A stretch of DNA of 62,074 nt, filler included, from Stramenopiles sp. TOSAG23-2 (lineage: Eukaryota), in assembly GCA_900128395.1 (NCBI GenBank). It is 10 parts of 10 records of this genome, joined end to end, with 100 filler letters (N's around TTAATTAATTAA, not from the genome) between each part and the next. Parts side by side here need not be neighbours in the genome. Positions count along the whole stretch, not along the records: positions 55,984 to 62,074 come from LT650520.1; 9 more parts are not named here. One strand, 5' to 3'. Position 1 is the stretch's first letter. The number at the start of each line of letters is the position of its first letter. Both the position numbers and the translations under genes were made by a program. Shown here in pieces: positions 9,821-62,074 of this stretch. The notes under the pieces were generated by a model. It saw nothing but the letters and a program-made list of their open reading frames with translations, made no database searches and had not been told where the DNA came from.

Positions 9821-10975
9821 TTAATTTAAATTTTCAATACAAATAATGATGCATGTCATATTATCTCCACCAATTCCACGAGTAGTTTTTGGATCATCTG
9901 CAATACAATAATCAAATACTTCTTCTGCTATTTGTGCCGGTGATTTACCTTGCTTTAATCGTACACGAACGAAATCTACAGCTTGTTGATTACTCATTAC
10001 ATCCCAGACACCATCACATGCCATAATGATAAACTCATCACCCGGACATAAAGTTTCAGTTAATAGATCTGGCTGAGCAGTTATCATTTGCTGCTCCGGT
10101 GGCAGCGTTTTATTTTGTTTATATTTTAAATCGCCTAAACTACGTGATAGATTTAAATTTCCATTTACCCGAAAATGCCCATTCGCACTTGTAATAAATC
10201 CACCAGCACCTACAATTCTGTCAGTCTCTTCTTTATCGTTTGGTTTATGATCAAATGATAATGGTACAGCAGCACCTTTTCTACATAAGACACCTCTTGA
10301 ATCTCCAGCATTTGCTACATAAATAGTATTACCAACAATTAATGCTACCACTGCTGTGCAACCACAACGCACGGGATGTTCGTTAAGGTTACATACTTTA
10401 CGGTCACCTTGTTCACCACCACCTGCAGTTACTCTCCCACCTTGTAATTGACGACGCATAACCATCATTTGTTGCATAACACGTCTAGCCTCTTCCTCTT
10501 TTTCCGTTGGTTGGTTTGACCTTGCTGACCCAAATAGACCACTATCATCCCTAGCGTTGTTGTTATTGTTCCTAATTGCAGATCCCATCGTATTATTATT
10601 TGACAGCGCATTTTCATTTGGCGTCATACCAATGGCACGTTGGTGTTCTGGTTGTTCAAGCAATACATCAATTGCATGAAATGCTTCACATAATGTTTTT
10701 TTATAATCACCGTTTTTGAAATTACTATTATTTTTGATAATATTTGGCATTTTCGCTTTAGCAAACTGCGCCACTTCTGGACCACCGTGCCCATCAAACA
10801 CGGCGTATAATGATACATTTTTCTGTCCATGCACATCTAAATCTGGTTCTGTAATATGAGCATCTTCCATTTTCTTCCTCCACCCCTGCATTGCAGATGC
10901 ACCATGTCTTAAATATGCGTTACCACCACTTTCTGTTTCTTTCTCTGTATTCGGTCGTTCTAAATAAGCACCCAT
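9821..10975 (-). CDS. Protein phosphatase 2C (PPM1G/Ptc2-like)
   Basis: MGAYL N-terminus, MQGWR..MEDAH, VFDGHGG, ANAGDSR, DHKP, RSLGD, ACDGVWD, GGDNMT. Confidence 0.95.
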   Translation of the reverse strand: MGAYLERPNTEKETESGGNAYLRHGASAMQGWRKKMEDAHITEPDLDVHGQKNVSLYAVFDGHGGPEVAQFAKAKMPNIIKNNSNFKNGDYKKTLCEAFHAIDVLLEQPEHQRAIGMTPNENALSNNNTMGSAIRNNNNNARDDSGLFGSARSNQPTEKEEEARRVMQQMMVMRRQLQGGRVTAGGGEQGDRKVCNLNEHPVRCGCTAVVALIVGNTIYVANAGDSRGVLCRKGAAVPLSFDHKPNDKEETDRIVGAGGFITSANGHFRVNGNLNLSRSLGDLKYKQNKTLPPEQQMITAQPDLLTETLCPGDEFIIMACDGVWDVMSNQQAVDFVRVRLKQGKSPAQIAEEVFDYCIADDPKTTRGIGGDNMTCIIICIENLN

Positions 10976-11305
10976 GTTTTCAAATTATTATTCTTGGAAA
11001 AGTTTAAAAAAAAACTTATTGTTATTTTTTTAATTGACTGCTATAATACACTATATATATGTGTGTGTGTGTATGATTCCAATTTATTGCTGTAAGTAAC
11101 AACAACAACAACAACAATAATAATAAAATGTAGAATAAAGAATTAGAATGTACAACAATATGTAAGTATTTAAAGGAATAAAGAAACAATGACTAAAAAA
11201 GCTGAAGTTGAAGCAGGGAATAGTTTTTGAAAAGTCATATATATTTACATATATAATTTATATTTATTGTATAGGAATTATTATTAATAGATATTAATAA
11301 TAATA

Positions 11306-12358: not shown

Positions 12359-12692
12359 AGAGAGAGAGNNNNNNNNNNNNNNNNNNNNNNNNNNNNNNNN
12401 NNNNNNNNNNNNTTAATTAATTAANNNNNNNNNNNNNNNNNNNNNNNNNNNNNNNNNNNNNNNNNNNNAAATAAAATTGGCATTTTAGAAAACGATATAT
12501 ACATATTTCCCATAGTGAATAGTTTTATTTGTGACATAATAAGGCGGATCTCAATCATCATATAACCGTTTGGTACACATTTTATGAAAGCAATATATAT
12601 AATAATAATAATAATATATATTATTATTATTCAGAGGTAGGCAGATAGATAGATTTGAGAGAGGAGAGATCAGAGAGAGAGCGAGAGATTGT

Positions 12693-29227: not shown

Positions 29228-31045
29228 TTACAAGACATAATCATTACTCTTTCGATTATCAGTGAAAAATACCGAAGTTTTGGTAAAATCAACAAATTCC
29301 CAATTACAGTCTTCGTAGTACAAGACACGATGACCATGACTCTCCACATGAAACGTATCTATATAAGCTTTATACCATGCTTTATCCTCTGGCCAGTAAA
29401 TATGAGCTTCACGTCCAATGATCATTTGGCTAAAATTAACATTTTTCAAACAACCTAGGCAATAATATACAATCTTGTCTGTTGTTCTTGGTTGTAAAGT
29501 GATCTCGTTTCCACAATTTTTTAGACAATTGGGACAGGTTGCACTACGAGCTGTAGCATTCTTACGAGTCGATGTTGTTGTCGTAGACGAGCTGCTGCTN
29601 NNNNNNNNNNNNNNNNNNNNNNNNNNNNNNNNNNNNNNNNNNNNNGTCGTAGACGAGCTGCTGCTACCGTTGGACGATCGAGCCGGTGATCGACTTTTCA
29701 TTCGATCCAATCCAGCATCAATAACCTGCAGCATACTCATTTGTTTATTAACTTCTCTTTCCAATATTCCAGCATGTTGATATACTTCAGATATCGATTC
29801 GTTATATTTTCTTGCATTTGCAACAAGTTTTTTTATATCAGACGAAAGTTTTTGCCTATTAATATATTCTCCATTTTGAATCTTTTCAGCTATTTCATTT
29901 AACGAAATCGGATCTTTTATCTTGCTACTGTAGTCAGGGAATTTTTCATCAGATGGTATGTGTTGAAAATGTTTTGTACAATCCTCTCCGTAAAGATCTC
30001 GTTTTTCAGTAATTGCTTTAAATATACGACTCAAATCAACATCCAATTTAAGAAGATGTGCCTTTCTCGATCTTTTTCTCAACCTTTCTTTAATTTGTTC
30101 AATTTTTTCTTCAAACGTCAATTCGCGTGGTGGCGGCGATGGTACTCGTGGAGCTTTTTTGGCTTTTTTCGCTGGTTCTGACATCATCTTCAGCTTTTTA
30201 GAGGAAGTTTTTTCATTACGACTATCGTTATTATCAGGAACTTGCTCCGCCCTATCCTTCTCTTCCTCCTCCTCCTCGTCATGTTTACGCTTTTTTTTCG
30301 ATTTTTTTGATTTCTTCCCCTTCTTTTTCTTCTTTTCGATATTCTTACTACTACTACTATTCTTACTGCTAGCGCCATTACGGTTACTTCCCACTTGTTC
30401 ATCATCTGCTGTTTCATCGTAAAGTAAATATTGTTGCGATGGTATTTTTACACCATCATTACCTCGCATTCTTTTCTTATCTTCAATTTGTTCTCGTCTC
30501 GTTCTTCTTGACATTGGCCCATTCTTCGGCTCATATTTGGTCCTTTCTGCTTCAAAAAAATTAAATTCACAATCAAAAATGCGTCTTTCAATTCGTACAC
30601 GTTTCTTCAATACATCTATTAAAGTTCGTGTACGATCAATGTCTCTGCGCACCGCAAGGAGATCTTTTAAGCCTTTTGGTAAAGGCCTTGTTGACTTTTT
30701 CTTTCTCCAAACCCCTTCCACTTTGTTAAATTCCAAATGTGATGGCCAATGTGTTGGACAATAATTGTACAAGCTTACCCCAGTACCGCCAACAGCTTTT
30801 CTAGTGTAAAAACAATTTGACATTGCTGCACATAACGGATGAAACTTCCGATAACATCCCGGTTCAGCACATTGCACACATGCACTATGATCAAACGCAT
30901 CTTGCTTACCCCCCAATTGGCATATGCAGCACCGATGGCCGAAATGTGATTTTTGAATATTCTTTATTACACATGCTTTGTTTATCCAATGTGTCCCGGG
31001 TACCCACGATGCACAAAAGGTATGCACCCATTTCCCAGAAGCTGT
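29228..31045 (-). CDS. BRPF/JADE-like chromatin reader: extended PHD, bromodomain and Tudor-like tail; 5' truncated
   Basis: HTFCASWVP...CCIC...ACVQC..GC..KFHPLCA...YCPTH (ePHD); FPDYSSKIKDPISL...NARKYN (bromodomain); IYWPEDKAWY...HRVLY (Tudor-like). Confidence 0.85.
   Translation of the reverse strand, partial: TASGKWVHTFCASWVPGTHWINKACVIKNIQKSHFGHRCCICQLGGKQDAFDHSACVQCAEPGCYRKFHPLCAAMSNCFYTRKAVGGTGVSLYNYCPTHWPSHLEFNKVEGVWRKKKSTRPLPKGLKDLLAVRRDIDRTRTLIDVLKKRVRIERRIFDCEFNFFEAERTKYEPKNGPMSRRTRREQIEDKKRMRGNDGVKIPSQQYLLYDETADDEQVGSNRNGASSKNSSSSKNIEKKKKKGKKSKKSKKKRKHDEEEEEEKDRAEQVPDNNDSRNEKTSSKKLKMMSEPAKKAKKAPRVPSPPPRELTFEEKIEQIKERLRKRSRKAHLLKLDVDLSRIFKAITEKRDLYGEDCTKHFQHIPSDEKFPDYSSKIKDPISLNEIAEKIQNGEYINRQKLSSDIKKLVANARKYNESISEVYQHAGILEREVNKQMSMLQVIDAGLDRMKSRSPARSSNGSSSSSTXXXXXXXXXXXXXXXXSSSSSTTTTSTRKNATARSATCPNCLKNCGNEITLQPRTTDKIVYYCLGCLKNVNFSQMIIGREAHIYWPEDKAWYKAYIDTFHVESHGHRVLYYEDCNWEFVDFTKTSVFFTDNRKSNDYVL
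29600..29645. other. Genuine scaffold gap inside a Ser/Thr coding repeat
   Basis: N run without the TTAA linker. GTCGTAGACGAGCTGCTGCT occurs on both sides. Confidence 0.85.
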
Positions 31046-38155: not shown

Positions 38156-39106
38156 ATGATAAATTTTTCTATAATATACTTATCATTGTTTCTATTTTTA
38201 TTCATATCAATTACAATTGCAACAAATAATGCAAATGAAGAATTTCCATATCCATCCTCTATTAATTCACCTGGAACACAAGATCAAGTTGATAGTCCGA
38301 TTATTTATTCAATGGGGTACATCTGGCAAAATACAACTTTGAAAGCCAATACACCAGTAGCATCTTTTGATCTTTCAAGTGATGCAATTCCACAGAGTTT
38401 GGATTGGCGTACCAAAGGTGTAGTAACACCAGTCAAAACACAAGGGCACTGTGGTTCGTGTTGGGCTTTTAGTGCAGTGGAGACTATAGAATCGGCACTA
38501 GCAATCACAACAGGTGAAGCGCCAGTATCTTTGTCCGTTGAACAAATTCTTGTATGTTGCAAGACGGTGGTACATTCACAGTGTTCCTCGTGTATGGGTG
38601 GTGATCCTATTGCTGCTTACCGCTATATACAAGAAAATTCAACAGGACTTGATGCCACGACAGACTACCCATACAATCCAGCAACAGATCCATTTGACCC
38701 ACCAGCATGTAAAGCTGCTTCAAACAAACCGGTTGCGAAAGTCACTTCATGGGCATATGCAGTCCCACGATGTGCTGGGGAAGGTTCTTGTGCGGATGGT
38801 GCTAAGAAAGAAACAGCATTGATGGCCGCGGTCGCACAAAATGGACCAGTTAGCATATGTATCGATGCGGAACATAGTTTCATCAATTATAAATCTGGTA
38901 TTTATAATGGACCATGTTCGACAAAGGTGGTTCGACAAAATCATTGCGTTAGTATTGTTGGTTATGATGCTCAGGAAAAGTATTGGCTAGTGCGAAATAC
39001 GTGGGGGAAAAGCTGGGGTGAAGATGGTTACATTCGTATGGCAATGGGTAGTAATTTGTGTGGGATTACAAATGAAGCTACCATTGTAAATGTAACAAAG
39101 GCATGA
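38156..39106 (+). CDS. Papain-family (C1A) cysteine protease
   Basis: Signal peptide, IPQSLDWR, QGHCGSCWAFS (Gln/Cys), QNHCV (His), VRNTWG (Asn). Confidence 0.93.
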   Translation: MINFSIIYLSLFLFLFISITIATNNANEEFPYPSSINSPGTQDQVDSPIIYSMGYIWQNTTLKANTPVASFDLSSDAIPQSLDWRTKGVVTPVKTQGHCGSCWAFSAVETIESALAITTGEAPVSLSVEQILVCCKTVVHSQCSSCMGGDPIAAYRYIQENSTGLDATTDYPYNPATDPFDPPACKAASNKPVAKVTSWAYAVPRCAGEGSCADGAKKETALMAAVAQNGPVSICIDAEHSFINYKSGIYNGPCSTKVVRQNHCVSIVGYDAQEKYWLVRNTWGKSWGEDGYIRMAMGSNLCGITNEATIVNVTKA

Positions 39107-42055: not shown

Positions 42056-43273
42056 ATGACCATGTTGTTAAATAATATATTTATCTTTTTTATTGTTATT
42101 ATTATTGTTGGAATTGCTGATGCTAGTAATGTTTTTGATGTAAATAATATAACTAACAAAGTATTTATACCTGGTGAGAATAATTATGTAGCATTTCGAA
42201 TTCCCGGTATCAAAGTTGTCGATTCAAAAAATATTTTAGTATTTGCAGAGGGTAGACGTTATGGGTGTAGTGATTATGCTGGGGAACATGATATTGTCTT
42301 TAAAAGGAGTCTAGATGCAGGGAAAACATGGTCAAAAATAAATGTATTAATGAATCCATATGAAATGTTTGGTGAATCTATTTGTCCCACAATTAACAAA
42401 ACATCTACGACAAATGCATGTCAATTTTGGGATCCAACACCAGTTTACGACAAAGATACAAAGATTTTACATGTTTTAACCGCATTTTCAAACTCAGCAA
42501 AGCATCGTATGTCAAGTGCAATGTGGGTTTATTCAATTACTTCAAATGATTTAGGTGCTACATGGAATAGTCCTACAAATATTACAAATCAAATTTTAAG
42601 TTTAAAATATGGTGTTCCAACCCCAAGTAATGGTCACGGTATACAATTAAGTAATGGAAAATTAATTGTACCAAATTATGTGAAACTAAATGGTGTTTCA
42701 GCAGTAATGTCAGGTATATTTTATTCAGATGATCATGGGAAAACATGGCAATTTGCGGAAACATCTTTAGTTGGTCTAGGTACAAGTGAAAGTGAAGTTG
42801 TTGAATTATATCCTTCTTCTACATCAGAAGCATCCCCAGTATCAACACTTTTATTTAATCATCGCCGTGCACCAAATGCCCAAATAGATACAGAATGTGA
42901 TGGTAAATCTGGAAATCAAGATGGTTGTAGATGGCAAAGTATTAGCCATGATGGTGGCATGACATTCAACCACTTTCATGCAATGCCGCATTTACCTGAT
43001 CCGTCAAACAAAGGCGGCATTTGTCGATACAAGGAAAAAAGGGCATTGTTATTTACTAACACGGCAACTGATATTAATCAAAGTCGTGTAAATGTGACAT
43101 TAAGAATCAGTTATGACAATGGCAATCATTGGTCGGATGGTATTTTAATATCTTATTGGGGTGGGTACTCTGATGTAGAAACAATTATAGATTCTAGTGG
43201 TAAATCAAAGGCAGCAGTTATATATGAAAATAATACATGTGCAATCAACATAAATCTTGTTGACTTGCCATAA
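42056..43273 (+). CDS. Secreted sialidase (GH33)
   Basis: Signal peptide, FRIP motif, several Asp-boxes (SLDAGKTW, SNDLGATW, SDDHGKTW, SHDGGMTF, SYDNGNHW), SES glutamate and GYSD tyrosine. Confidence 0.9.
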   Translation: MTMLLNNIFIFFIVIIIVGIADASNVFDVNNITNKVFIPGENNYVAFRIPGIKVVDSKNILVFAEGRRYGCSDYAGEHDIVFKRSLDAGKTWSKINVLMNPYEMFGESICPTINKTSTTNACQFWDPTPVYDKDTKILHVLTAFSNSAKHRMSSAMWVYSITSNDLGATWNSPTNITNQILSLKYGVPTPSNGHGIQLSNGKLIVPNYVKLNGVSAVMSGIFYSDDHGKTWQFAETSLVGLGTSESEVVELYPSSTSEASPVSTLLFNHRRAPNAQIDTECDGKSGNQDGCRWQSISHDGGMTFNHFHAMPHLPDPSNKGGICRYKEKRALLFTNTATDINQSRVNVTLRISYDNGNHWSDGILISYWGGYSDVETIIDSSGKSKAAVIYENNTCAININLVDLP

Positions 43274-49259: not shown

Positions 49260-49785
49260 GATGACACGACTTATCACGGGTGAAATTGATTGTGGAAGCA
49301 ATAGCAACTGGTGAATGTTCTGCAATCAATGCGGCTGTATGGCATGCGTGTTGAATCAATTCTTCGCGTAATAATCCACTTAGTGATAATATGAAATCAC
49401 AATTAAAAGCTATACAACAATATAAAAGAGATGGATCAAACGGGTATCAACAAGTGAAAGATATGTTATTAATGTGTATATATGATGGACATAATAATTA
49501 TAAATTATATATATATTTATATACTACCAACTACAATACCCTATCAATTTATTACCGTGTTTCCATGTTTCCATTATCCATAATCCATGAAATCCATCAT
49601 CCATCATAATCCATAATATAAATACAACTCATAAAAAAAATGCCATACGGCGAGGGCCCTACATTTGTTTTTTAAGGGTGTGAGTNNNNNNNNNNNNNNN
49701 NNNNNNNNNNNNNNNNNNNNNNNNNNNNNTTAATTAATTAANNNNNNNNNNNNNNNNNNNNNNNNNNNNNNNNNNNNNNNNNNNN

Positions 49786-50521
49786 TATTATTTGGATTGG
49801 CTATGAGCTCGCACGTAGCTTTTGGCAATCAAGTTGATTCTTACCATACTGCTACAAAATCTTTTTTGAATGTTTTTCAGTTAACTTTTGGTGACTTTGA
49901 CATTAGCTTTGATTCGATGATGAAGAGCAAAGAGGTTTTTACAATGATATTTTGGATACTCTCTACTTTTGCAATGACAATGGTCATGATGAACGTGATG
50001 ATTGCTGTCGTATCGGACGTTTACCAAGATAGTGTTCGTGAAAGTAAGAAAGATTTTGTCACTGAAAGTAATGTAAGACTAATGAAGCAGTTGAAAAACT
50101 TGAAGAGGGCAGATAATAATGATGTTTTAAAGCTAATTGGGGATTATTTAAGTGTATCGAAAACACTGGTGGATAAAGATGTGAATCGATTGGTTCGTAC
50201 ATTAGCAAAAGGACATGGAAAGAGTTTGAAAGAGAGTAGAGAAGAAACTTTTCGTCGAGTTTTAGGTGCTTCAAAAGGAAATGATTTTCACAGCGTCATG
50301 AAATATTTGACAAAACTATCTGTTGAATAGGCGTTGAGTTGGATGAACAAGGATTAGAAGACGAAGGTGATCATATGCCGGACAGTGAATCATACAGTGC
50401 AAAAGTTCAATATGACTACTTGCAACATAAAAAATTTCATCAACGAAAAATAGAAGATCGTGAGAAAGATTCTAAAGAAAAACTTGCACAAAGAAGGGCA
50501 GCCCAAAAACTTAACTCTTGA
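49786..50521 (+). CDS. C-terminal part of a polycystin (PKD2/TRPP-like) cation channel, 5' truncated
   Basis: Pore and S6 signature FG.QVDSYHT..KSFLNVFQLTFGDFD...MMNVMIAVVSDVY. The 50339-50521 segment can be joined by a putative 65-bp intron (50266-50330). Confidence 0.7.
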
Positions 50522-50697
50522 GAGATTCATGTGTGTACTCGTATATTTCACATCAGGAAAAAATATATTTGGTGTATAAATCATATATATTATATTTTCA
50601 TTACGAAAAGCGATGTTACTTTTTTGTAAAATATGATACGAGTACTCGTACTATTTTATAGAGATATATATGTCTTTCATACCGCCATATATTTTTT

Positions 50698-52380
50698 TTA
50701 CAGAAAATCAAACACACCCCAATGATTTTCATATTTATCTTTTGCAATATTACATGCTCGTGCATCTTTTTTTCCTCTATATGGACTGTAAACTGTTTTT
50801 TGTGCTTCTTCAATACGTTTTAACATTTCATTGAATAAATCTGGCATAGATGGTGCAAGATTATTCATTTCATATGGATCTTCTTTAATATTAAATAAAC
50901 AGCCATGTTTTGCATCAGGCTTACATTTCATTAATTTTGTTAATGGCCATAAACGTGGCTTCGTATTATTTGGCCAATTTGCACCTGTAATAGTATTTTG
51001 ATTTACGTTATATAAGCGACTTTTTGCACCAATAATCAATTTATAATCATTAATAATGATACCTCCAACTAATGTTTTTCCACCGGCATTTGGATATAAA
51101 CTAGTTGTATCTCCTATAATAATTTCATTACGTGGTGATGTATTGTTTTTACCGGAAAGTAAAGGCCACATGTTAATGGAATCAATTCCTGGTAAATTTG
51201 CGTTTGCAGCCATATTATCAAATGGATCTATATTTGCTATACTAGCATATGTTGCATACCAATCCCATCCTGTAATATAGTGTTCTATTTTCGTTCCAAC
51301 TTTTTCATTTGGAATAATTCCACCTGTAACAAATGCATTTACACGAATACCCCCCTCCCAATTACTAAATTTTCCTCCCTTTAATGGAAAATTATTCCCC
51401 CCGCATAATCCTCCACCCATGATTTCACCCCCATTATCTGCATGGAAAACAATTAATGCATTATCATATATACCACGTTTTTTCAACAAGTCGATTACTT
51501 TCCCAACATTTTCATCCATTAAATTACCCATCGCATGATTTAATCGTCTATATGTATTATTGATGAAAGAAAATTTATCAACATATTTTTGTGGTACTTG
51601 CAAAGGCATGTGCACCAAATGCATCGACCAAAAAAGAAATAATGATGTTGATACATCATGTTTTTCAATAATATTCAAAACTTCATTTGTTAAAATTTCT
51701 TCCTCATATATACACGTTTCATTATTCTTAGGTTTTTGATTATCTTGAGAACAGCTTGGACCATTTTGATAAAAAGTTGCTGGACCATCAAACGTTTCAT
51801 TATATTTCCATAAATCATATACAGGTTTTGATGAACATTTTTCCACTGTGTATTGCCAATAATCGTTGCTATGGTGAAAATATCCTAACCATGTATCATA
51901 TCCTCGAAATTTTGGGTGGTGGTAAGGAGTAGCCATGCCTACGTCCCATTTGCCAACAATGTGTGTTTTATAATTTTGTTTACGAAGCAATGCAGCAATT
52001 CCTGTCATATTTGTTGGTATTCCTTGATACCCACCGATAATATCTTTTGAATTAGTAACTTCTGGTGGAACATTTTGAACATTTACATGTATTGGGTTTC
52101 TACCAGTTTGTATAGAGCTACGTGAAGGAGAGCAAATTTTATATACATAGAATCGATCAAGTTCGATCCCTGAATTTTTTAACGCATCAAGATTCGGTGT
52201 CTGTACCTCTTGATTATTGTTATTATTATTATTTCGATGATAACCGATATCTGCCCAACCATAATCATCCGCTAAAATATGTATAATATGTGGGTGTGGT
52301 GGTGTTGATTTTGCACTGAATACATGTTGTAATAATGTTATTATTATTATTATTATTATGATTGGGTATAATTTAATCAT
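50698..52380 (-). CDS. Arylsulfatase B-like sulfatase (family S1), left arm copy
   Basis: Signal peptide from MIKLYP, ILADDYGW, CSPSR (FGly motif), VGKWDVG, ADNG, KGGK..NWEGGIRV. Confidence 0.92.
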   Translation of the reverse strand: MIKLYPIIIIIIIITLLQHVFSAKSTPPHPHIIHILADDYGWADIGYHRNNNNNNNQEVQTPNLDALKNSGIELDRFYVYKICSPSRSSIQTGRNPIHVNVQNVPPEVTNSKDIIGGYQGIPTNMTGIAALLRKQNYKTHIVGKWDVGMATPYHHPKFRGYDTWLGYFHHSNDYWQYTVEKCSSKPVYDLWKYNETFDGPATFYQNGPSCSQDNQKPKNNETCIYEEEILTNEVLNIIEKHDVSTSLFLFWSMHLVHMPLQVPQKYVDKFSFINNTYRRLNHAMGNLMDENVGKVIDLLKKRGIYDNALIVFHADNGGEIMGGGLCGGNNFPLKGGKFSNWEGGIRVNAFVTGGIIPNEKVGTKIEHYITGWDWYATYASIANIDPFDNMAANANLPGIDSINMWPLLSGKNNTSPRNEIIIGDTTSLYPNAGGKTLVGGIIINDYKLIIGAKSRLYNVNQNTITGANWPNNTKPRLWPLTKLMKCKPDAKHGCLFNIKEDPYEMNNLAPSMPDLFNEMLKRIEEAQKTVYSPYRGKKDARACNIAKDKYENHWGVFDFL

Positions 52381-53288
52381 TATTATCCTGTTAAAAAAAG
52401 TTGAAAAAGCTGCAAGAATGGTATATACATACATATATATATAATGTCGGTCTTTTCTGTTATCTGTATAATCAGTTGTTCCATTGATGTGATCCTAATC
52501 CCATCTATAATATTTTCAACACTTCTTTTTGTTATAAGCTAATAATATCTTTTTTTTTTGCGGGCTCTTCTCGTCGTATCTTTTTAAGGCTTTTATTACT
52601 TTTTCCTATCTTTTTTTTGGTGTTTTGATTTTTGTATATCAGCCTTTTACTTTCAGGTAAATTTTTTTTTTTGTTTCCCTTTTTTTCTTAAAAAAATACG
52701 AGCGTGTACTGGTGCTACTTTATACCGAGGTCGTAATTAATATAAATATTATCTTTTAAAAATTTAATAAAATTAAAAGGTATGCACGTATTAAGTTTTA
52801 ATGAAGTGTGCGTGTACATTTTATATTTTTTTTTAAAAAAAAATTTAAAATGTACACGCACACTTCATTAAAACTTAATACGTGCATACCTTTTAATTTT
52901 ATTAAATTTTTAAAAGATAATATTTATATTAATTACGACCTCGGTATAAAGTAGCACCAGTACACGCTCGTATTTTTTTAAGAAAAAAAGGGAAACAAAA
53001 AAAAAAATTTACCTGAAAGTAAAAGGCTGATATACAAAAATCAAAACACCAAAAAAAAGATAGGACAAAGTAATAAAAGCCTTAAAAAGATACGACGAGA
53101 AGAGCCCGCAAAAAAAAAAGATATTATTAGCTTATAACAAAAAGAAGTGTTGAAAATATTATAGATGGGATTAGGATCACATCAATGGAACAACTGATTA
53201 TACAGATAACAGAAAAGACCGACATTATATATATATGTATGTATATACCATTCTTGCAGCTTTTTCAACTTTTTTTAACAGGATAATA

Positions 53289-54971
53289 ATGATTAAATTA
53301 TACCCAATCATAATAATAATAATAATAATAACATTATTACAACATGTATTCAGTGCAAAATCAACACCACCACACCCACATATTATACATATTTTAGCGG
53401 ATGATTATGGTTGGGCAGATATCGGTTATCATCGAAATAATAATAATAACAATAATCAAGAGGTACAGACACCGAATCTTGATGCGTTAAAAAATTCAGG
53501 GATCGAACTTGATCGATTCTATGTATATAAAATTTGCTCTCCTTCACGTAGCTCTATACAAACTGGTAGAAACCCAATACATGTAAATGTTCAAAATGTT
53601 CCACCAGAAGTTACTAATTCAAAAGATATTATCGGTGGGTATCAAGGAATACCAACAAATATGACAGGAATTGCTGCATTGCTTCGTAAACAAAATTATA
53701 AAACACACATTGTTGGCAAATGGGACGTAGGCATGGCTACTCCTTACCACCACCCAAAATTTCGAGGATATGATACATGGTTAGGATATTTTCACCATAG
53801 CAACGATTATTGGCAATACACAGTGGAAAAATGTTCATCAAAACCTGTATATGATTTATGGAAATATAATGAAACGTTTGATGGTCCAGCAACTTTTTAT
53901 CAAAATGGTCCAAGCTGTTCTCAAGATAATCAAAAACCTAAGAATAATGAAACGTGTATATATGAGGAAGAAATTTTAACAAATGAAGTTTTGAATATTA
54001 TTGAAAAACATGATGTATCAACATCATTATTTCTTTTTTGGTCGATGCATTTGGTGCACATGCCTTTGCAAGTACCACAAAAATATGTTGATAAATTTTC
54101 TTTCATCAATAATACATATAGACGATTAAATCATGCGATGGGTAATTTAATGGATGAAAATGTTGGGAAAGTAATCGACTTGTTGAAAAAACGTGGTATA
54201 TATGATAATGCATTAATTGTTTTCCATGCAGATAATGGGGGTGAAATCATGGGTGGAGGATTATGCGGGGGGAATAATTTTCCATTAAAGGGAGGAAAAT
54301 TTAGTAATTGGGAGGGGGGTATTCGTGTAAATGCATTTGTTACAGGTGGAATTATTCCAAATGAAAAAGTTGGAACGAAAATAGAACACTATATTACAGG
54401 ATGGGATTGGTATGCAACATATGCTAGTATAGCAAATATAGATCCATTTGATAATATGGCTGCAAACGCAAATTTACCAGGAATTGATTCCATTAACATG
54501 TGGCCTTTACTTTCCGGTAAAAACAATACATCACCACGTAATGAAATTATTATAGGAGATACAACTAGTTTATATCCAAATGCCGGTGGAAAAACATTAG
54601 TTGGAGGTATCATTATTAATGATTATAAATTGATTATTGGTGCAAAAAGTCGCTTATATAACGTAAATCAAAATACTATTACAGGTGCAAATTGGCCAAA
54701 TAATACGAAGCCACGTTTATGGCCATTAACAAAATTAATGAAATGTAAGCCTGATGCAAAACATGGCTGTTTATTTAATATTAAAGAAGATCCATATGAA
54801 ATGAATAATCTTGCACCATCTATGCCAGATTTATTCAATGAAATGTTAAAACGTATTGAAGAAGCACAAAAAACAGTTTACAGTCCATATAGAGGAAAAA
54901 AAGATGCACGAGCATGTAATATTGCAAAAGATAAATATGAAAATCATTGGGGTGTGTTTGATTTTCTGTAA
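53289..54971 (+). CDS. Arylsulfatase B-like sulfatase (family S1), right arm copy
   Basis: Translation identical to the left arm copy. Confidence 0.9.
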   Translation: MIKLYPIIIIIIIITLLQHVFSAKSTPPHPHIIHILADDYGWADIGYHRNNNNNNNQEVQTPNLDALKNSGIELDRFYVYKICSPSRSSIQTGRNPIHVNVQNVPPEVTNSKDIIGGYQGIPTNMTGIAALLRKQNYKTHIVGKWDVGMATPYHHPKFRGYDTWLGYFHHSNDYWQYTVEKCSSKPVYDLWKYNETFDGPATFYQNGPSCSQDNQKPKNNETCIYEEEILTNEVLNIIEKHDVSTSLFLFWSMHLVHMPLQVPQKYVDKFSFINNTYRRLNHAMGNLMDENVGKVIDLLKKRGIYDNALIVFHADNGGEIMGGGLCGGNNFPLKGGKFSNWEGGIRVNAFVTGGIIPNEKVGTKIEHYITGWDWYATYASIANIDPFDNMAANANLPGIDSINMWPLLSGKNNTSPRNEIIIGDTTSLYPNAGGKTLVGGIIINDYKLIIGAKSRLYNVNQNTITGANWPNNTKPRLWPLTKLMKCKPDAKHGCLFNIKEDPYEMNNLAPSMPDLFNEMLKRIEEAQKTVYSPYRGKKDARACNIAKDKYENHWGVFDFL

Positions 54972-55147
54972 AAAAAATATATGGCGGTATGAAAGACATA
55001 TATATCTCTATAAAATAGTACGAGTACTCGTATCATATTTTACAAAAAAGTAACATCGCTTTTCGTAATGAAAATATAATATATATGATTTATACACCAA
55101 ATATATTTTTTCCTGATGTGAAATATACGAGTACACACATGAATCTC

Positions 55148-55883
55148 TCAAGAGTTAAGTTTTTGGGCTGCCCTTCTTTGTGCAAGTTTTTCTTTAGAAT
55201 CTTTCTCACGATCTTCTATTTTTCGTTGATGAAATTTTTTATGTTGCAAGTAGTCATATTGAACTTTTGCACTGTATGATTCACTGTCCGGCATATGATC
55301 ACCTTCGTCTTCTAATCCTTGTTCATCCAACTCAACGCCTATTCAACAGATAGTTTTGTCAAATATTTCATGACGCTGTGAAAATCATTTCCTTTTGAAG
55401 CACCTAAAACTCGACGAAAAGTTTCTTCTCTACTCTCTTTCAAACTCTTTCCATGTCCTTTTGCTAATGTACGAACCAATCGATTCACATCTTTATCCAC
55501 CAGTGTTTTCGATACACTTAAATAATCCCCAATTAGCTTTAAAACATCATTATTATCTGCCCTCTTCAAGTTTTTCAACTGCTTCATTAGTCTTACATTA
55601 CTTTCAGTGACAAAATCTTTCTTACTTTCACGAACACTATCTTGGTAAACGTCCGATACGACAGCAATCATCACGTTCATCATGACCATTGTCATTGCAA
55701 AAGTAGAGAGTATCCAAAATATCATTGTAAAAACCTCTTTGCTCTTCATCATCGAATCAAAGCTAATGTCAAAGTCACCAAAAGTTAACTGAAAAACATT
55801 CAAAAAAGATTTTGTAGCAGTATGGTAAGAATCAACTTGATTGCCAAAAGCTACGTGCGAGCTCATAGCCAATCCAAATAATA
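55148..55883 (-). CDS. Mirror copy of the polycystin-like channel C-terminus
   Basis: Reverse complement of 49786-50521. Confidence 0.68.
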
Positions 55884-56008
55884 NNNNNNNNNNNNNNNNN
55901 NNNNNNNNNNNNNNNNNNNNNNNNNNNTTAATTAATTAANNNNNNNNNNNNNNNNNNNNNNNNNNNNNNNNNNNNNNNNNNNNCGTGATGTACAAAATCT
56001 TCCTTTTT

Positions 56009-59000
56009 TTACTCTTTCCCTGGCAAATTGACGCCATTAACACTCATTGGTAATTCAGGATTATCCATTATTTTATATGTTTTAATTTTTTGACATAGTG
56101 GGCATTGATGAGCTTCTAGTTTGACACATGTTTGACCTTCGTATCGGTTACTATCACTATATAATTTATCAAACGATGATGAAAACAATAATTGGTAATC
56201 ATGACCTCGTTCAAACGTGTAAAAGATATTTGCGCCCATAATCAATTCGTGGCAATCTGAACAAGATCCTAACCATTTAAATGCTTGTCCATGCCCATTA
56301 TAATTGCGTATACGTGTATTTTCCGGAGGAGCAATAATTGGCTTTTCAGGTCGTTTGGCACGACCTATAATTTCGTTGTCCATCTTTGTTAATATCACTT
56401 GTACAACCCCGTCATTTAAATCATTGCAAGTAAACAGACCATGTGTTTTATGAGCATCGCAAGTAATGCCATTTTGAAGTTGTTTCCCTGCAAATGTATT
56501 TAAGACGGTTAATTTAAATTCAACTACATGTTCAATCAATTCTACTGAACGAAATGTTCCTAATTTATCTGGAATATTTGGACCAAAACATACGTTTTCT
56601 GCCAATGTCACCCATTCTTGAGACCTATCTATTTCATGCCCAGGTTCTTTCCTTGGGAATTCTTTGTATGGTATAAACCTTGTTTTATTAAAACCACGGT
56701 GAATATCATGCAATTGATATGTTAAATGATTTAATTGTTTTTGGATTTTTCCTAAATGTGCCATTTTGATCTTTCTCTTTACTGCTTCTTCATTTTCTTT
56801 TCTATCATTGTTTGCTATAATTGGTTTCTTCATCTTTTTTTTTGGAAGAATACAATTATTGACATCATCCTCATAACGTATCATTGCCGTACCTTCTCGT
56901 GAAAAACATTGTGGTTGATCTATTTTTGTATACATTATATCAAGGCTAAATTTATCATCGGCTACAATATGTGAATGGCATTCTTCTTCCGTACCTTCTT
57001 CACCAGTAACAGCATCGTCATACCGATATTTTAAAATCAATTCATAGACTTTTTCTTCCTCCTTTGCTGTAGGATCCACTTTAACGCCGAATAAAATATG
57101 ATAATACAATTCAACATCTTCATCTGGGTATAAATGCAATTCATTCGTTGTTTTATTTACTTTTTCTCGTACTATTGCAGTAACATCAATACCATCTGTA
57201 ACGGACCATAACTGTTTTGGGTTGCCATACCATGCCTTTAGTATATTTAAAGCATATCGTTTTTGTATTTTTCCACAATATTTTTGATGTACTGCATCAC
57301 CATCGTCATGTGTCGTATCGTCATCATCAGTTAATGCTTCCTCGCGCATTTTATTGTTGTTGTTGTTGTTGTTGTTATTTGCAATTAACTTGTGAATATG
57401 AAATGATTTTGATAATATATTTCGTCTTCCTCGTCTAGCACTACGCAACATACTTGTCGGTCTATGTCTCGTCTTCACCACCACATCGTGATTATTTACA
57501 ATCGTTTCACCCATGTTGATCTCTTTAAACTTTTCATCGTCGCCTTCATTATCTTCATCCGTTCCATCATCACCATCATTACTAATGTTGTCATCTTCTT
57601 CATCCGAATTATCATCTGTTGGTAAATCATCGTCGCCAACGTCCGATTCGTCTTTGCATTGTTTGTACTTTGCTTTTAAATCTTGACGCTTTGCTTTTTT
57701 TTCTCGAAGTTTTTCTTTTGTACGTTTGATCTTTCCTGTCATTGTTTTAATTTTTTGTTTGCGTTTTTCAGTTTTTTTTCTGTTACGCATTCGCTTCCGC
57801 TTTCTTTTCCTTCTTGATTTTTTTTTTCTAAGAAATCTAACCCTTTCTCTTATTTTTTTAATTCTCTTCTTGAATTTTGCGCAGTCCTTGCTACTATCAT
57901 CATCGCCTGCTCCTGGGGATGATCCTGGCGATGGTCCTGGGGATGGTCCTGGCGATGGTCCTGGCGACCCACTGTCTCCGTTATTACCTCCGTCGGTATT
58001 GCCTCCGTTATTTCCAACTCCTTCCCCTTTACCATCTGCTTTTGGTGGTGCAGCTCCACCTTCTGCTGGTGCCGCTTTCTCTGGTTTTTGAAACATGGCT
58101 CCAGAAAAATCAACATTAGACATTGTCTCTTCTATCTTGTTCATTCCTATTTTAGCTTTATTTAATATCTCTTTACCCTTTGCAACTAATTTTTCCCAAA
58201 AGGAATGGTCTGGATTCGATTTTGCAGCGTCAAGGGATTTTAACTCACCCTTCAACATTTTAACTTGCGCTTCTGCATTTTTCATCGCCCCAGCCAACTC
58301 CGGGTCTGCATTTGCAGATGCTTCAGCATGTTGTTTAATTTGTTTTTCTAAATGTTCTATTTTTGATCCAATTGCTGCTTCTTCTATTTTGATTTGATCT
58401 TTTAATAATTCAAGCCCTTCTTCTGCATGAATGTCTGCTTGCTTCTTTCCTGCTTCTTTTATTTTATTTTGCAATGTTGAAAGATATCCTCGCATGCTTC
58501 CAGGGCCATTTCGGGAAGCTTTTGCTTTTTCAGTTTCCTTCCATTTCTGTAACTCCTTATCAATTGTCTCGGATTTTTGTTGTGCCTGGTGAATAGCTTG
58601 CTTCATATCCATATGCATTTTTTCAGTTGTCTTTTCCTCTTCAAGTACTTTTCCTTCTTTTTTACCCATATGTGTTATTTCATCAAATAAATCATCAGCT
58701 TCTCCACCCTCGGGTTTACTTATTTGTGTAGATTGACAACTGCATGATTGCGAACACGATGCGCATACTTCTTTTGTCAATTTTGCTGCCATACAAATCC
58801 CAAAATCTTTTAATTTGTCTATAACCCCACATCTTGCTTTCGGGATATCAACACCTGGTGGTAATGATGGTGCTTTGTTTGGTGTATCATTATCCGTTCC
58901 TTGAGATTTTTTCTGATCTTCCAATTGTTTCTCGGAATTGTCATCTTTCACTGAGTTGCGTATAATATCACCATTAAATCCACCATCTTGAAGATTTTTC

Positions 59001-62000
59001 ATTGTAACTCTAGAATCCGCGTGTGGCAAATTAGGAGGCTCAATACCTATTTTTACAACCGTACCAGGTGGTTTCAAATGTTTCTTTGTCCATTCCCATT
59101 CCACACCTTCATGTTCTAACTTTACGAATATATTTGGGTTAGCATGTGGATCTAAATCCAACTCTTTCAATGCACATATTAATCTTTCCAACAAGCTTGG
59201 CTTGCATTTACAACCTTCATGGCCTTTTCCACCCTGAGGTGGTGGCGCTTTTACGTTTTTTTCGATTTCCTTCTTTATATCCTCCTGAGTTGGTTTTTTT
59301 TCATTTGTTGATGGCGGTGTTTTTGGTGCTGGTTTTGGTGCTTTTGCTTCATCCGCTTGTATAGATCCCATCTCGCTTAATTTTGGCGATTCTGCTTCAG
59401 CAGGTGCTGCTGCTGGCTTTGGCGCTGCTGGAGGAGGTGGTGCGGGGGCTGGTTTATCATCTCCACCTGTATCTTTACCTGTATCTCCACCTGCATCTTT
59501 ACCTGTATCTCCACCTGCATCTTTACCTTTATCTCCACCTGCATCTTTACCTTTATCTCCACCTGTATCTTTACCTTTATCTCCATCTGTATCTTTGCCT
59601 TTAGGAGCTGGTACAGGAGGAGCAGGGGGAGGTGGACAACATTTAATGTTATTACTTCCAGCACATTTGCCATGTAATACATCCGAATCACACTTTTCGT
59701 GGCGTAAATCAATACATTTTCCTTCTGCACCTTTACATTTCACATCGCACGATGGTGGGCCAGGACATTCCTTCCATTTATTTAAAAGTGCCGTATTTGC
59801 TTTTGCAGACTTATCATTTGGCAAACTATAACATTTTGATATTTTTATTTGATAAAATTTATAATCTTTATTGAAACATTCATACATAGTATTTGCACTT
59901 GGACATGCTGGTTGGCATGAACCTTGCACTTTGCTTTTCATTTCAACAAAAGACGACGTGCTACTTGGGTTATCCATATGCAAATGCGCTTTTCTTGCCA
60001 TGGCTCTTCTTTTTCGTTTGAAATTATTCCTTAAACTTAAATCTAGGAAACTGTTTGTTCTAGGTTTTACCATATTATTATTTTGATCGTCGCTTACATA
60101 AACAGATTTTTTTTGAATATTATTAGAATTTGTCACTGAATCGCCTTTGTTGGTGGATCCTTTCTTTCGAAGACCAACCATTTTATCATTGTTCTTAGCA
60201 TCGATCATCGTAGTTTTTCGAATCGTTTCACCCATGTTGATCTCTTTAAATTTACCACCACAATGTCCATCTGCACCCCAATTTTTTACAACTTTTACTT
60301 TCCTACCATCACCAAATGGATCTGGCTTTCCTAAAACATTATCAATGCATGTTTGGTCATTTCCAGCATCTCTAGCACGCCCATTATCATTACAATCATA
60401 ATTTTGACCTCCTTGATGTTTTGCCAAATATGCTTTACATTCCTCTGATTTATCCCCGCCTCCGCTATCTTTACCTCCACCTCCGCTATCTTTACCCCCG
60501 CCTCCGCTATCTTTACCCCCGCCTCCGCTATCTTTACCCCCGCCTCCAAGTTTTTTTGCTGCTTTTTTTATGCCTTTCACAACTTTCTTAATGAGACAAA
60601 ATATTTTTTTAAGTATTCCTTTTCCTTTTCCACATTTTTTTTTTCCCTTAGGTTTACCTGGTTTAAAGGGACTGCCTGAGGCGTCTTTAGCCGGCACCTT
60701 ATCTTCTGGACCTGCTTCATTTGCATCATCACCACCTTCCGTTCTTAAACCCTTAAGTTCTTCTACCATTGATTTAGGATTGTGACTATCCTCATGTTTG
60801 GATGGTGGTGGTCCTTTTTCTTGGTTTTCTATCTCGGCCGCATCTGCTTTTGCTTTATTGGCTATAAAAGTGCCAAGCAATTGACCTAAATCCCCTTTGC
60901 TTTTTGGGCATTCGTTTTTTTTATCACCGCAAGCACCTGCTTTCTTACATACTAAATCCTCTAGATCATCTGCGTTCATGCAATCAGTTCTTGATAATAT
61001 CTCTACACCAACTTCTTGAAATCCCATTTTTCCCAACTTGGAAACAAATTTCTTTGATGCTGCTGCAACTTTTTTAATGAAACAGGTAATGACACCTATT
61101 ACACCTTTACCTTTACCACATTTTTTCTTCTGCTCTTTTGCATCTGGTACAAGCACTTCTGGTTTCATTGGTGGTTTTTTATCTTTACAAACTGGCATAG
61201 GCGATGGCGATAAAAGACTAGCTACCGCACATGCTGGGCACGCGGGTGGGCTACCACCACCATCACCAGGACTTGGTCGTGGTTTTGGTGTTGGTCCAGG
61301 GCCATGGTTTGGTGATGCATTTGGTGATGCATTTGGTGATGCATTTGGTGATGCATTCGGTGATGCATTCGGTGATGCATTCGGTGATGCATTCGGTGAT
61401 ACACTAGGCAGTGATACATCTCGTGGTTCCATATTTGGTGTTGTTGGTGGTGCATGGCTTGGTGTTGCTACCGGTCGTGCCGCGCTTGGTTGTATTGGTG
61501 GTGGAGATGCATTTGGTGATGCACTTGGTGGCGTTGGTGGTGAATCTTTCTTATCCGGCATTCTACAAACCATTTTTTCATGTGGGCGTTGCATCATATT
61601 GCTTTTAGCATTTGCAATAGCAGCGGGCATTGGTTTTTCGTAAACAAAAGCTTCCCCTTTCTGTTTAAATTTAAGATTTAAAAATTTATCTACTGGTTCA
61701 TACTCATAGATTACCATGTCTCCATTTGAGTCCAAGTTAACTTGCTTGAATCCAAAGCCTAGTCCTTTTCCAACTGCTTTGAGACCTTTTCCAACAGCTT
61801 TTACAACTTTTTTTATTAGACATAAAATAGCACCAAGCAAACCTTTCTTGCACTTCTTTTTTCCACCGCCTGATCCGCCGCTGCCACCACCACCACCACT
61901 GCCACCACCACCACCACTACCTCCTCCACCAGCTCCTCCTGCTCCTGCAGCAGCAGCATCTGCTGTAGCTTTATCAGCCAAATTGTCTAACCCAGTACCC

Positions 62001-62074
62001 TCAAATGGCATTGCCTCCTCTCCACTACCACCACCACCACCACCACCTCCTCCTCCTCCTCCTCCTCCTCCTCT
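56009..62074 (-). CDS. >2000-aa modular polyprotein with AMP-like helices, Cys-rich modules, low-complexity linkers and C-terminal globular domains; 5' truncated
   Basis: Single open frame to the window end (21 further codons RGGG...SGEEA before the listed Met). Repeated C-x9/11-C helices; SPNA, GGGGKDS, DTGGDKGK and SPGP linkers. Confidence 0.8.
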   Translation of the reverse strand, partial: RGGGGGGGGGGGGGGGSGEEAMPFEGTGLDNLADKATADAAAAGAGGAGGGGSGGGGGSGGGGGSGGSGGGKKKCKKGLLGAILCLIKKVVKAVGKGLKAVGKGLGFGFKQVNLDSNGDMVIYEYEPVDKFLNLKFKQKGEAFVYEKPMPAAIANAKSNMMQRPHEKMVCRMPDKKDSPPTPPSASPNASPPPIQPSAARPVATPSHAPPTTPNMEPRDVSLPSVSPNASPNASPNASPNASPNASPNASPNASPNHGPGPTPKPRPSPGDGGGSPPACPACAVASLLSPSPMPVCKDKKPPMKPEVLVPDAKEQKKKCGKGKGVIGVITCFIKKVAAASKKFVSKLGKMGFQEVGVEILSRTDCMNADDLEDLVCKKAGACGDKKNECPKSKGDLGQLLGTFIANKAKADAAEIENQEKGPPPSKHEDSHNPKSMVEELKGLRTEGGDDANEAGPEDKVPAKDASGSPFKPGKPKGKKKCGKGKGILKKIFCLIKKVVKGIKKAAKKLGGGGKDSGGGGKDSGGGGKDSGGGGKDSGGGDKSEECKAYLAKHQGGQNYDCNDNGRARDAGNDQTCIDNVLGKPDPFGDGRKVKVVKNWGADGHCGGKFKEINMGETIRKTTMIDAKNNDKMVGLRKKGSTNKGDSVTNSNNIQKKSVYVSDDQNNNMVKPRTNSFLDLSLRNNFKRKRRAMARKAHLHMDNPSSTSSFVEMKSKVQGSCQPACPSANTMYECFNKDYKFYQIKISKCYSLPNDKSAKANTALLNKWKECPGPPSCDVKCKGAEGKCIDLRHEKCDSDVLHGKCAGSNNIKCCPPPPAPPVPAPKGKDTDGDKGKDTGGDKGKDAGGDKGKDAGGDTGKDAGGDTGKDTGGDDKPAPAPPPPAAPKPAAAPAEAESPKLSEMGSIQADEAKAPKPAPKTPPSTNEKKPTQEDIKKEIEKNVKAPPPQGGKGHEGCKCKPSLLERLICALKELDLDPHANPNIFVKLEHEGVEWEWTKKHLKPPGTVVKIGIEPPNLPHADSRVTMKNLQDGGFNGDIIRNSVKDDNSEKQLEDQKKSQGTDNDTPNKAPSLPPGVDIPKARCGVIDKLKDFGICMAAKLTKEVCASCSQSCSCQSTQISKPEGGEADDLFDEITHMGKKEGKVLEEEKTTEKMHMDMKQAIHQAQQKSETIDKELQKWKETEKAKASRNGPGSMRGYLSTLQNKIKEAGKKQADIHAEEGLELLKDQIKIEEAAIGSKIEHLEKQIKQHAEASANADPELAGAMKNAEAQVKMLKGELKSLDAAKSNPDHSFWEKLVAKGKEILNKAKIGMNKIEETMSNVDFSGAMFQKPEKAAPAEGGAAPPKADGKGEGVGNNGGNTDGGNNGDSGSPGPSPGPSPGPSPGSSPGAGDDDSSKDCAKFKKRIKKIRERVRFLRKKKSRRKRKRKRMRNRKKTEKRKQKIKTMTGKIKRTKEKLREKKAKRQDLKAKYKQCKDESDVGDDDLPTDDNSDEEDDNISNDGDDGTDEDNEGDDEKFKEINMGETIVNNHDVVVKTRHRPTSMLRSARRGRRNILSKSFHIHKLIANNNNNNNNNKMREEALTDDDDTTHDDGDAVHQKYCGKIQKRYALNILKAWYGNPKQLWSVTDGIDVTAIVREKVNKTTNELHLYPDEDVELYYHILFGVKVDPTAKEEEKVYELILKYRYDDAVTGEEGTEEECHSHIVADDKFSLDIMYTKIDQPQCFSREGTAMIRYEDDVNNCILPKKKMKKPIIANNDRKENEEAVKRKIKMAHLGKIQKQLNHLTYQLHDIHRGFNKTRFIPYKEFPRKEPGHEIDRSQEWVTLAENVCFGPNIPDKLGTFRSVELIEHVVEFKLTVLNTFAGKQLQNGITCDAHKTHGLFTCNDLNDGVVQVILTKMDNEIIGRAKRPEKPIIAPPENTRIRNYNGHGQAFKWLGSCSDCHELIMGANIFYTFERGHDYQLLFSSSFDKLYSDSNRYEGQTCVKLEAHQCPLCQKIKTYKIMDNPELPMSVNGVNLPGKE

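Follow-up and report, generated by a model that had tools for sequence, protein, structure and literature searches.

The last part of a 62,074-nucleotide stretch of DNA from Stramenopiles sp. TOSAG23-2 (assembly GCA_900128395.1; ten record parts joined end to end with filler, hereafter the window) is filled by one giant open reading frame (ORF) on the minus strand (56009–62074, in record LT650520.1). The frame contains 2021 codons, ends with a stop codon at 56009–56011, and is open at its 5' end, where the window stops. Its product (P0001, at least 2021 residues) carries three segments in which two cysteines bracket the start of a strongly cationic amphipathic helix. This Cys-bracketed helix motif is new, and the protein that carries it is an orphan. 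Comparison with a full-length orthologue suggests that the ORF encodes the C-terminal ~60% of a giant secreted protein of ~3,300 residues or more. In the reading that we favor, to which we assign a probability of about 0.45, this is a secreted mosaic protein of the adhesive or matrix type, with tethered cationic helices that would bind anionic membranes or polymers. The protein is probably lineage-restricted and its host a marine, probably phagotrophic protist.

Module 1 (61742–61861; residues 72–111) opens with KKKC-x9-C, continues as an amphipathic Lys-rich helix, and ends in a GFGFKQ tail. Module 2 (61013–61129; residues 316–354) and module 3 (60545–60643; residues 478–510) both open with KKKC-x11-C followed by an amphipathic helix, which in module 2 runs into a GFQE tail. 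These and all other features of the ORF lie on the minus strand. The three modules are homologous: the KKKC opening is followed by a second cysteine 9 or 11 residues on and then by [LF]IKKV, and each module starts with KKK and closes with a conserved F-[KQ]-[EQ]. Across the six frames of the whole window, the expression KKKC-x9/11-C-[LF]IKKV matches only these three sites. Modules 1, 2, and 3 have charges of +12, +10, and +14, and their best 18-residue hydrophobic moments (0.73, 0.58, and 0.77) are rarely matched by chance: when the residues of each module were shuffled 2000 times, 0.1%, 2.9%, and 0.1% of the shuffles attained these values. They are the top three amphipathic 18-mers of the entire P0001. 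A first-pass annotation, made from the DNA alone, had described the ORF as a possible precursor of antimicrobial peptides, with three strongly cationic modules, two less cationic ones, and one variant lacking the second cysteine. All six peptide strings that it named occur in the translation (modules 1–5 and the Cys-less variant at 60848–60910), and its description of modules 1–3 as strongly cationic amphipathic helices agrees with charge, hydrophobic moment, shuffles, and structure prediction alike.

This prediction is an AlphaFold2 model of residues 60–620, computed from a 14-row alignment and of low overall confidence (mean predicted local distance difference test (pLDDT) 47.6, predicted template modeling score 0.24). 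The model places one helix on module 1 (residues 79–104, block pLDDT 71–84), one on module 2 (residues 325–346, pLDDT about 55), and one on module 3 (residues 487–510, pLDDT 77–84), with disorder between the three. Since these helices are isolated, modules 1–3 are not predicted to be buried within a fold; burial had been named in the first-pass annotation as an argument against lytic peptides. In each module the model sets the first cysteine in the Lys/Gly loop ahead of the helix and the second within the helix itself. The pair may staple the loop onto the helix or may cross-link separate chains.

The full-length orthologue was found when metagenome contigs were scanned with an alignment that covers the region of modules 2 and 3; one locus (L001) was returned. 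Positions 4382–14320 of L001 form a single frame of 3312 codons. The encoded protein, P0032, aligns colinearly with P0001 at 52–62% identity, from the Gly-rich stretch that precedes module 1 through to the final residues, and contains modules 1, 2, and 3 in the same order. It adds ~1,630 Cys-rich residues upstream of the part covered by the window: a region of scattered four-Cys motifs is followed by 14 regular, regex-defined four-Cys units at residues 1080–1443, and the protein contains 163 cysteines overall. Residues 1396–1443, in the part that would lie upstream of the window in P0001, match DUF7107 (PF23416; 26.6 bits against a cutoff of 24.6, E 7.4e-6). P0032 starts with basic residues and a 10-residue hydrophobic core with a Kyte–Doolittle (KD) value of 2.78. 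This core is on a par with the most hydrophobic parts of the protein, in which just 2 of 3257 internal windows reach 2.5. This N-terminus is signal-peptide-like by hydropathy, and it suggests secretion through the orthologue; the lack of such a segment in the full-length protein, named in the first-pass annotation as an argument against a precursor, is not what P0032 shows. P0001 itself contains no 19-residue hydrophobic segment and thus no membrane span. Together with the start of the orthologue, this makes a giant soluble secreted protein the simplest reading.

Synonymous sites are saturated between the window and L001 (proportion of synonymous differences about 0.7), and the overall ratio of nonsynonymous to synonymous substitution rates (dN/dS) is 0.15. 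Pooled, modules 1–3 show 82% amino acid identity between P0001 and P0032, with a proportion of nonsynonymous differences of 0.12; module 1 taken singly is 85% identical. The corresponding identities are 85% for a Cys-rich block at residues 716–816, 82% for the block around module 4, 73% for the Cys cluster after module 2, 66% for the segment after module 1, and 34–55% for linkers and spacers. Modules 1–3 are among the best conserved parts of the protein, equal to the folded Cys-rich block, and are not fast-evolving. Substitutions across orthologues preserve their pattern of hydrophobic and Lys residues. Module-bearing fragments are also found in other assemblies (P0003, P0004, P0007, P0008, P0009, P0011, P0019, P0033, and P0034); module 2 is kept in P0003, P0007, P0009, P0011, and P0032, and module 3 in P0004, P0008, and P0032. 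Since pairwise identities between fragments go down to about 40–50%, the modules have been retained in at least six diverged marine lineages. A profile of six module copies was searched against 5.8 billion proteins of 75–2000 residues; of 2331 candidates, 8 were hits, each of them a fragment of an orthologue of P0001. A profile search for the module had been proposed in the first-pass annotation; in this size range it found no carrier apart from these orthologues and no stand-alone peptide gene with the module, proteins under 75 residues being outside the search.

The gene is real, conserved, and present in RNA libraries. In four runs, one of DNA and three of RNA, contigs colinear with the window cover 29, 29, 28, and 27 of 30 bins across 55984–62074. 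Three separate studies, one of them with poly-A selection, supplied the RNA runs, whose contigs indicate presence, not level, DNA carry-over being possible. No contig of the four runs skips any part of 55984–62074, and no intron was seen in them. The sole joints in these contigs are two that go back, reflecting paralogues or variants. The last bin (61900–62074), a Gly-codon repeat, is without contig cover in all four runs, and we draw no conclusion from it. Among the 24 public runs listed, 20 contain the stretch; six are recorded as RNA, and the 11 studies are mostly marine or seawater metagenomes and metatranscriptomes. Translated searches (tblastn) with P0001, P0032, and two other large proteins described below (P0002 and P0012) found no paralogue in positions 1–55983 of the window.

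Convertases of the furin and kexin type recognize R-X-K/R-R. The motifs RRGRR and KRKRR fit this pattern and are candidate cleavage sites. The former (57422–57436; residues 1547–1551) precedes the C-terminal region and is identical in P0001 and P0032, with RGRR in P0025; the latter is a second multibasic motif, located in spacer 1. The conserved multibasic motifs suggest that the protein is cut into few large pieces. None of the 15 KR/RR sites listed for P0001 is beside a module, the nearest being at residues 686–689 and from 1403 onward. The pattern of a repeat polyprotein with dibasic flanks is absent, because no module is flanked by KR/RR and the spacers differ in length and sequence. The precursor idea of the first-pass annotation is supported as far as cutting into pieces is suggested, but release of the modules themselves, which lack flanking KR/RR sites and have conserved neighbors, is not supported.

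In the reading that we favor, the protein would be exported and probably cut at the conserved multibasic sites into few large pieces. The three cationic helices would remain tethered and act as polyanion- or membrane-binding elements that could hold the protein to anionic surfaces, such as the envelopes of bacterial prey, the cell's own membrane, or acidic glycans. In P0032 the parts follow each other in this order: a signal-peptide-like start, a long Cys-rich region with four-Cys repeats, Gly/Pro linkers with the three helices, further Cys-rich blocks, a Lys/Glu-rich helical stretch, and a globular C-terminal region that opens with a lectin-like beta domain. We prefer tethered helices to a peptide factory because the three modules sit in a conserved 3,300-residue protein next to conserved neighbors, without flanking dibasic sites and without stand-alone copies. 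A structural or adhesive role, which had been mentioned in the first-pass annotation as the alternative, fits the whole architecture better.

Several observations weigh against this assignment. The physicochemistry of modules 1–3 is exactly that of lytic peptides. The sole Pfam signal is the insect antimicrobial family Moricin (PF06451), a sub-threshold match of module 1 (E 0.055; 13.7 bits against a cutoff of 27.6) in searches of the single modules with E up to 10, modules 2 and 3 yielding no match. Pfam, NCBIfam, and the Protein Data Bank (PDB) gave no match to an adhesive or matrix family either. For insertion into a membrane, the Gly-rich hydrophobic helix after module 2 would be suitable too. 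The placement of modules 4 and 5 in folded domains is by conservation alone, and the model of residues 700–1135, built from three sequences, has a pLDDT of 32.7. The N-terminus of P0001 lies outside the window, so that export is deduced from the orthologue P0032, and localization, binding, and processing are all read from sequence.

The same properties could belong to a lytic-peptide precursor, from which convertases and/or lysosomal cathepsins would free modules 1–3 as disulfide-looped helices that permeabilize bacterial prey in the food vacuole or outside the cell. The high charge (+10 to +14), the hydrophobic moments (0.58–0.77) of the top three 18-mers, the helices predicted to stand isolated between disordered linkers, and the Moricin match all point in this direction. 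The KKK starts and F-[KQ]-[EQ] ends of the modules could mark cuts, and the signal-peptide-like start of P0032, the conserved multibasic motifs elsewhere in the protein, and the presence in RNA libraries of three studies are consistent with such a precursor. In passages of PMC11542183, naegleriapore B and Dictyostelium Apl provide a protist precedent for precursors of several antimicrobial peptides. We nevertheless consider release of the modules unlikely. There are only three of them, they make up 3.3% of the 3312 residues of P0032, and the remainder is conserved multidomain sequence. No KR/RR site adjoins any module, no stand-alone or multiplied copies occur in other proteins of 75–2000 residues, and neither an antimicrobial family at threshold nor a saposin domain was found. 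The strong purifying selection on the modules and their neighbors is unusual for effector peptides, though compatible with them. Quite unlikely is the bolder version in which a clade of marine protists with global distribution owns a new non-saposin, membrane-lytic weapon, with Cys-stapled cationic helices, one of them paired with the Gly-rich hydrophobic helix, carried by a giant secreted protein and freed by a convertase or cathepsin to kill or permeabilize bacterial prey.

The protein could also be cargo of a regulated secretory organelle, such as an extrusome or dense granule, where its basic, acidic, and Gly/Pro blocks would serve charge-driven condensation and rapid expansion on release, and the cationic helices would aid packing or membrane attachment after discharge. 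An extreme basic block (residues ~1395–1470) does adjoin an acidic block (residues ~1475–1515), low-complexity repeats are present, candidate multibasic processing motifs are conserved in three orthologues, and P0032 has an N-terminus of the secretory type. The basic/acidic block, however, belongs to an insertion that is absent from P0032, from P0025, and from the RNA contigs of runs X5 and X16, and is thus not essential to the family. Pfam, word-index, HMMER, and PDB searches found no homology to a known extrusome protein, and we regard this function as decidedly doubtful. A very improbable explanation is that the ORF is not one gene product at all but an assembly chimera or a fusion of neighboring genes, the modules having come from a smaller protein. 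A perfect 3149-nt palindrome lies directly downstream of the ORF, synteny with L001 is absent on that side, and a 68-residue domain at residues 538–605 forms the C-terminal end of other proteins. Against this, no stop interrupts the 2021 codons, an independent metagenome contig has the parts in unchanged order within a single frame of 3312 codons, DNA and RNA contigs of four runs are colinear over 27–29 of 30 bins, and conservation is coding-like throughout (overall dN/dS 0.15).

Known systems resemble the protein in part. Family searches gave no match for whole P0001 in Pfam with E up to 1, and none in NCBIfam for four proteins. PDB sequence searches returned only artifacts of Gly/Ser linkers and designed coiled coils, no usable hit came from the ESM Atlas with either the C-terminal region or the orthologue's N-terminal 1480 residues, and a full-text literature search for KKKCGKGKG found no paper. 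Like the multi-SAPLIP precursors (naegleriapore B, Dictyostelium AplE and AplK, prosaposin), the protein would be a secreted precursor with several Cys-containing, putatively membrane-active helical units in a bacterivorous protist. Of the features that mark this type, several units plus a signal peptide, it has three units, and a signal-peptide-like start is seen by hydropathy in P0032 only. Unlike them, it has no saposin B domain (none in P0001 in Pfam with E up to 1, and none in residues 316–409 with E up to 10), its modules are about 35 rather than about 80 residues long, and they constitute 3.3% of the protein rather than most of it. The six cysteines of the module 2 unit are spaced x11, x33, x10, x5, x6, which we take to be unlike the saposin pattern. 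For naegleriapore B, processing into separate units is documented in the same passages of PMC11542183.

With the moricin, cecropin, magainin, and melittin class, modules 1–3 have in common a composition rich in Lys, Gly, Val, and Leu, high charge, a high hydrophobic moment, and a predicted single helix. Linear alpha-helical antimicrobial peptides come from small prepropeptide genes, whereas the modules form part of a protein with 2021 or more residues, contain two conserved cysteines, and are highly conserved between diverged species. Disulfide-looped peptides such as the Rana-box brevinins, bactenecin, and thanatin likewise have a Cys pair 7–12 residues apart in a cationic, membrane-active segment. 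In those peptides the loop stands at, or forms, the C-terminal end, while each module has its first cysteine in a KKKC(GKGKG) loop on the N-terminal side and its second within the helix's hydrophobic face. Giant secreted mosaic surface and matrix proteins with EGF-like Cys repeats, such as flagellar hair (mastigoneme) proteins and extracellular-matrix glycoproteins, share with this protein the signal-peptide-like start, short Cys repeats in the tens, low-complexity Gly/Pro linkers, a lectin-like domain, and the lack of a membrane span, but no common sequence family links them to it. We know of no counterpart of the Cys-bracketed cationic helices among such proteins.

The segment that follows module 2 consists of a four-Cys cluster and a Gly-rich hydrophobic helix (60848–61012; residues 355–409). 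In alignment A1 it contains 20 invariant columns, which include VC..AGACG.KKN.CPKS. AlphaFold2 predicts helices at residues 368–378 and 393–418, and the counterpart of the hydrophobic helix in P0032 reaches a 19-residue KD value (KD19) of 1.71. What had been annotated as a module variant without the second cysteine is this separate conserved hydrophobic helix and not a module copy. The proposed modules 4 and 5 likewise fared only in part as annotated: their Cys spacings are C-x9-C and C-x11-C as described, but at a charge of +1, with an amphipathicity that 20% and 11% of shuffles reach, their lytic nature is not borne out. Module 4 (59159–59206) lies within a conserved block at 58895–59224 (residues 951–1060; 82% identity, dN/dS 0.09), and module 5 (58766–58831; residues 1082–1103), followed by a CxxCxxxCxC cluster, sits in a block with 70% identity. 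Since both are non-cationic and part of well conserved blocks, they are not credible lytic units. C-x9-C or C-x11-C pairs occur 8 times against 2.7 expected under uniformly placed cysteines (P 0.005), a control that ignores the clustering of cysteines.

The Gly- and Pro-rich repeats that had been noted between modules were recovered as ten tandem-repeat rows, for example at 61311–61400, 60449–60547, and 59459–59603. The second of these is a (GGGGKDS)n repeat at the start of insertion 1 relative to P0032. Farther toward the C-terminus follow a 68-residue four-Cys domain (60260–60463; residues 538–605) that is missing from P0032 and has no Pfam match, and spacer 1 (59930–60253; residues 608–715) with KFKEINMGETI, a variable stretch, and the multibasic KRKRR site. 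Next come the Cys-rich domain at 59627–59929 (residues 716–816), also without a Pfam match, and, after the blocks that hold modules 4 and 5, a Lys/Glu-rich stretch (58085–58699; residues 1126–1330; 43% identity) that is coiled-coil-like by inspection only. Insertion 2 (57500–58072; residues ~1335–1525) comprises a Gly/Asn-rich part, (PGPS)n, a very basic block, an acidic block, and a second KFKEINMGETI.

The C-terminal globular region (56012–57286; residues 1597–2021) has 61% identity to P0032 and a dN/dS of 0.09, and it opens with an AWYG...DVT beta domain. A HMMER scan with the C-terminal 437 residues against 1.84 billion representative sequences matched 11 proteins. Six are fragments of orthologues (E 1.1e-77 to 1.3e-12), and among the five weak matches (E 6.8e-6 to 7.3e-4) are proteins with AWYG...DVT repeats, of which two have a DnaJ-C11 C-terminal domain. 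With phmmer, residues 1609–1706 were linked to P0029 (E 2e-4) and P0031 (E 7.3e-4), which contain PF11875 at E 3e-24 and E 6e-9, respectively. Pfam gave no direct match of residues ~1600–1690 of P0001 to PF11875 or PF02140, and the AWYG...DVT pattern common to P0029 and P0031 is visible in this segment. This pattern suggests a resemblance of the beta domain to the DnaJ-C11 C-terminal and SUEL-lectin-like domains (PF11875, PF02140).

Relative to P0032, P0001 contains two in-frame insertions. The first combines the (GGGGKDS)n repeat with the 68-residue four-Cys domain (residues ~511–616); the second contains the Gly/Asn, (PGPS)n, basic, and acidic parts at residues ~1335–1525, and it is missing in P0032, in P0025, and in the RNA contigs of X5 and X16. 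Both insertions are closed by a 38-nt direct repeat (57495–57532 and 60216–60253, 92% identical) that encodes KFKEINMGETI and may mark a mechanism of recombination or domain shuffling. In-frame introns at the two KFKEINMGETI sites were considered and rejected, there being neither GT...AG borders nor skipping joints in RNA contigs; the 543-nt length difference is an indel between lineages. The 68-residue domain is 88% identical to the end of P0002 and is also found in P0010, P0012, P0013, P0015, and P0018. It is a multicopy domain that forms the extreme C-terminus of other large proteins with signal-peptide-like starts (P0002, P0012), and a word-index search with whole P0001 found only P0002, through this domain. 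Loose contig ends fall at 60259/60260, exactly at the end of the domain, in all four runs, and in some contigs of X5 and X16 the domain occurs in tandem (joint from 60445 to 60251). P0002 (2381 residues) and P0012 (933 residues), presumably secreted paralogues, are without Pfam or NCBIfam family matches. They have in common a conserved His/Thr/Leu-rich segment, followed by CxxC...CxxC and a Tyr-rich part (YY..YY), ahead of the 68-residue domain. P0032 has an internal duplication of its own, in which the spacer piece KKANN[VI]DK.DLSFITLKS...RQSI was inserted after module 2 (L001 10175–10260 and about 10900–11000; residues ~1932–1960 and ~2175–2215), which adds to the signs of reshuffling within genes of this family. 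The locus thus displays in-frame domain shuffling, with a 68-residue Cys domain and a 38-nt repeat at the insertion borders.

The window has ~31% G+C and is densely filled with long frames, free of interruptions, that encode eukaryotic proteins, among them a Glu/Gln-tRNA synthetase with a GST domain, a bromodomain/PHD protein, a WD40 protein, an ABCB transporter, a PP2C, and a cation-efflux protein. The eukaryotic source given for the DNA is in line with this compact marine genome, in which the ORF is a real gene. A giant-virus origin, considered because the genes are AT-rich and compact and include the tRNA synthetase and a mini-channel-like ORF, was rejected: a search of viral contigs found no relative (0 of 68 candidate stretches), and the neighbors of the orthologue on L001 are eukaryotic (Dzip1-like, PIG-H, Nop16, and a receptor kinase). 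Lysosome-type hydrolases are encoded at 592–2184, 38156–39106, 42056–43273, 50698–52434, and 53235–54971, comprising an AAT/NAAA-like protein, a papain-family cathepsin, a BNR sialidase, and two sulfatases. As weak context, this set suggests a phagotrophic lifestyle.

The palindrome downstream of the giant ORF spans 49686–55983 and consists of two arms of 3149 nt (49686–52834 and 52835–55983) that are 100% complementary and without a spacer. It mirrors a sulfatase gene and an ORF of 177 residues, and its end, at masked N runs, is separated by just 25 nt from the giant ORF's stop codon. Either a genuine inverted duplication or an artifact of assembly or amplification could account for it. In run X1, a DNA contig reaches about 4.2 kb beyond 55984. 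The 177-residue ORF (55339–55872 on the minus strand and 49797–50330 on the plus strand) matches polycystin and ion-transport channel profiles only in their last, pore-forming part (positions 153–223 of the 225 positions of PKD_channel, E 1.3e-7) and is either a mini-channel or a fragment cut by a masked stretch. The window contains 19 N runs with 838 N in all, in pairs of 44-N runs about every 6.2 kb plus one single run (for example, 6136–6235, 12369–12468, 29600–29645, and 55884–55983). Some interrupt frames, as upstream of the bromodomain ORF at 31027, and the last pair mirrors the pair at 49686–49785 across the center of the palindrome.

The gene described here is an orphan without a described family, yet it is widespread in seawater metagenomes and metatranscriptomes. 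Should its helices bind prey or membranes, they would help to explain the capture or processing of bacteria by uncultured marine grazers. Should they be released, they would represent a new class of protist antimicrobials, with three ready-made sequences for synthesis. Under either reading, the modules are a clean, conserved, and testable motif.

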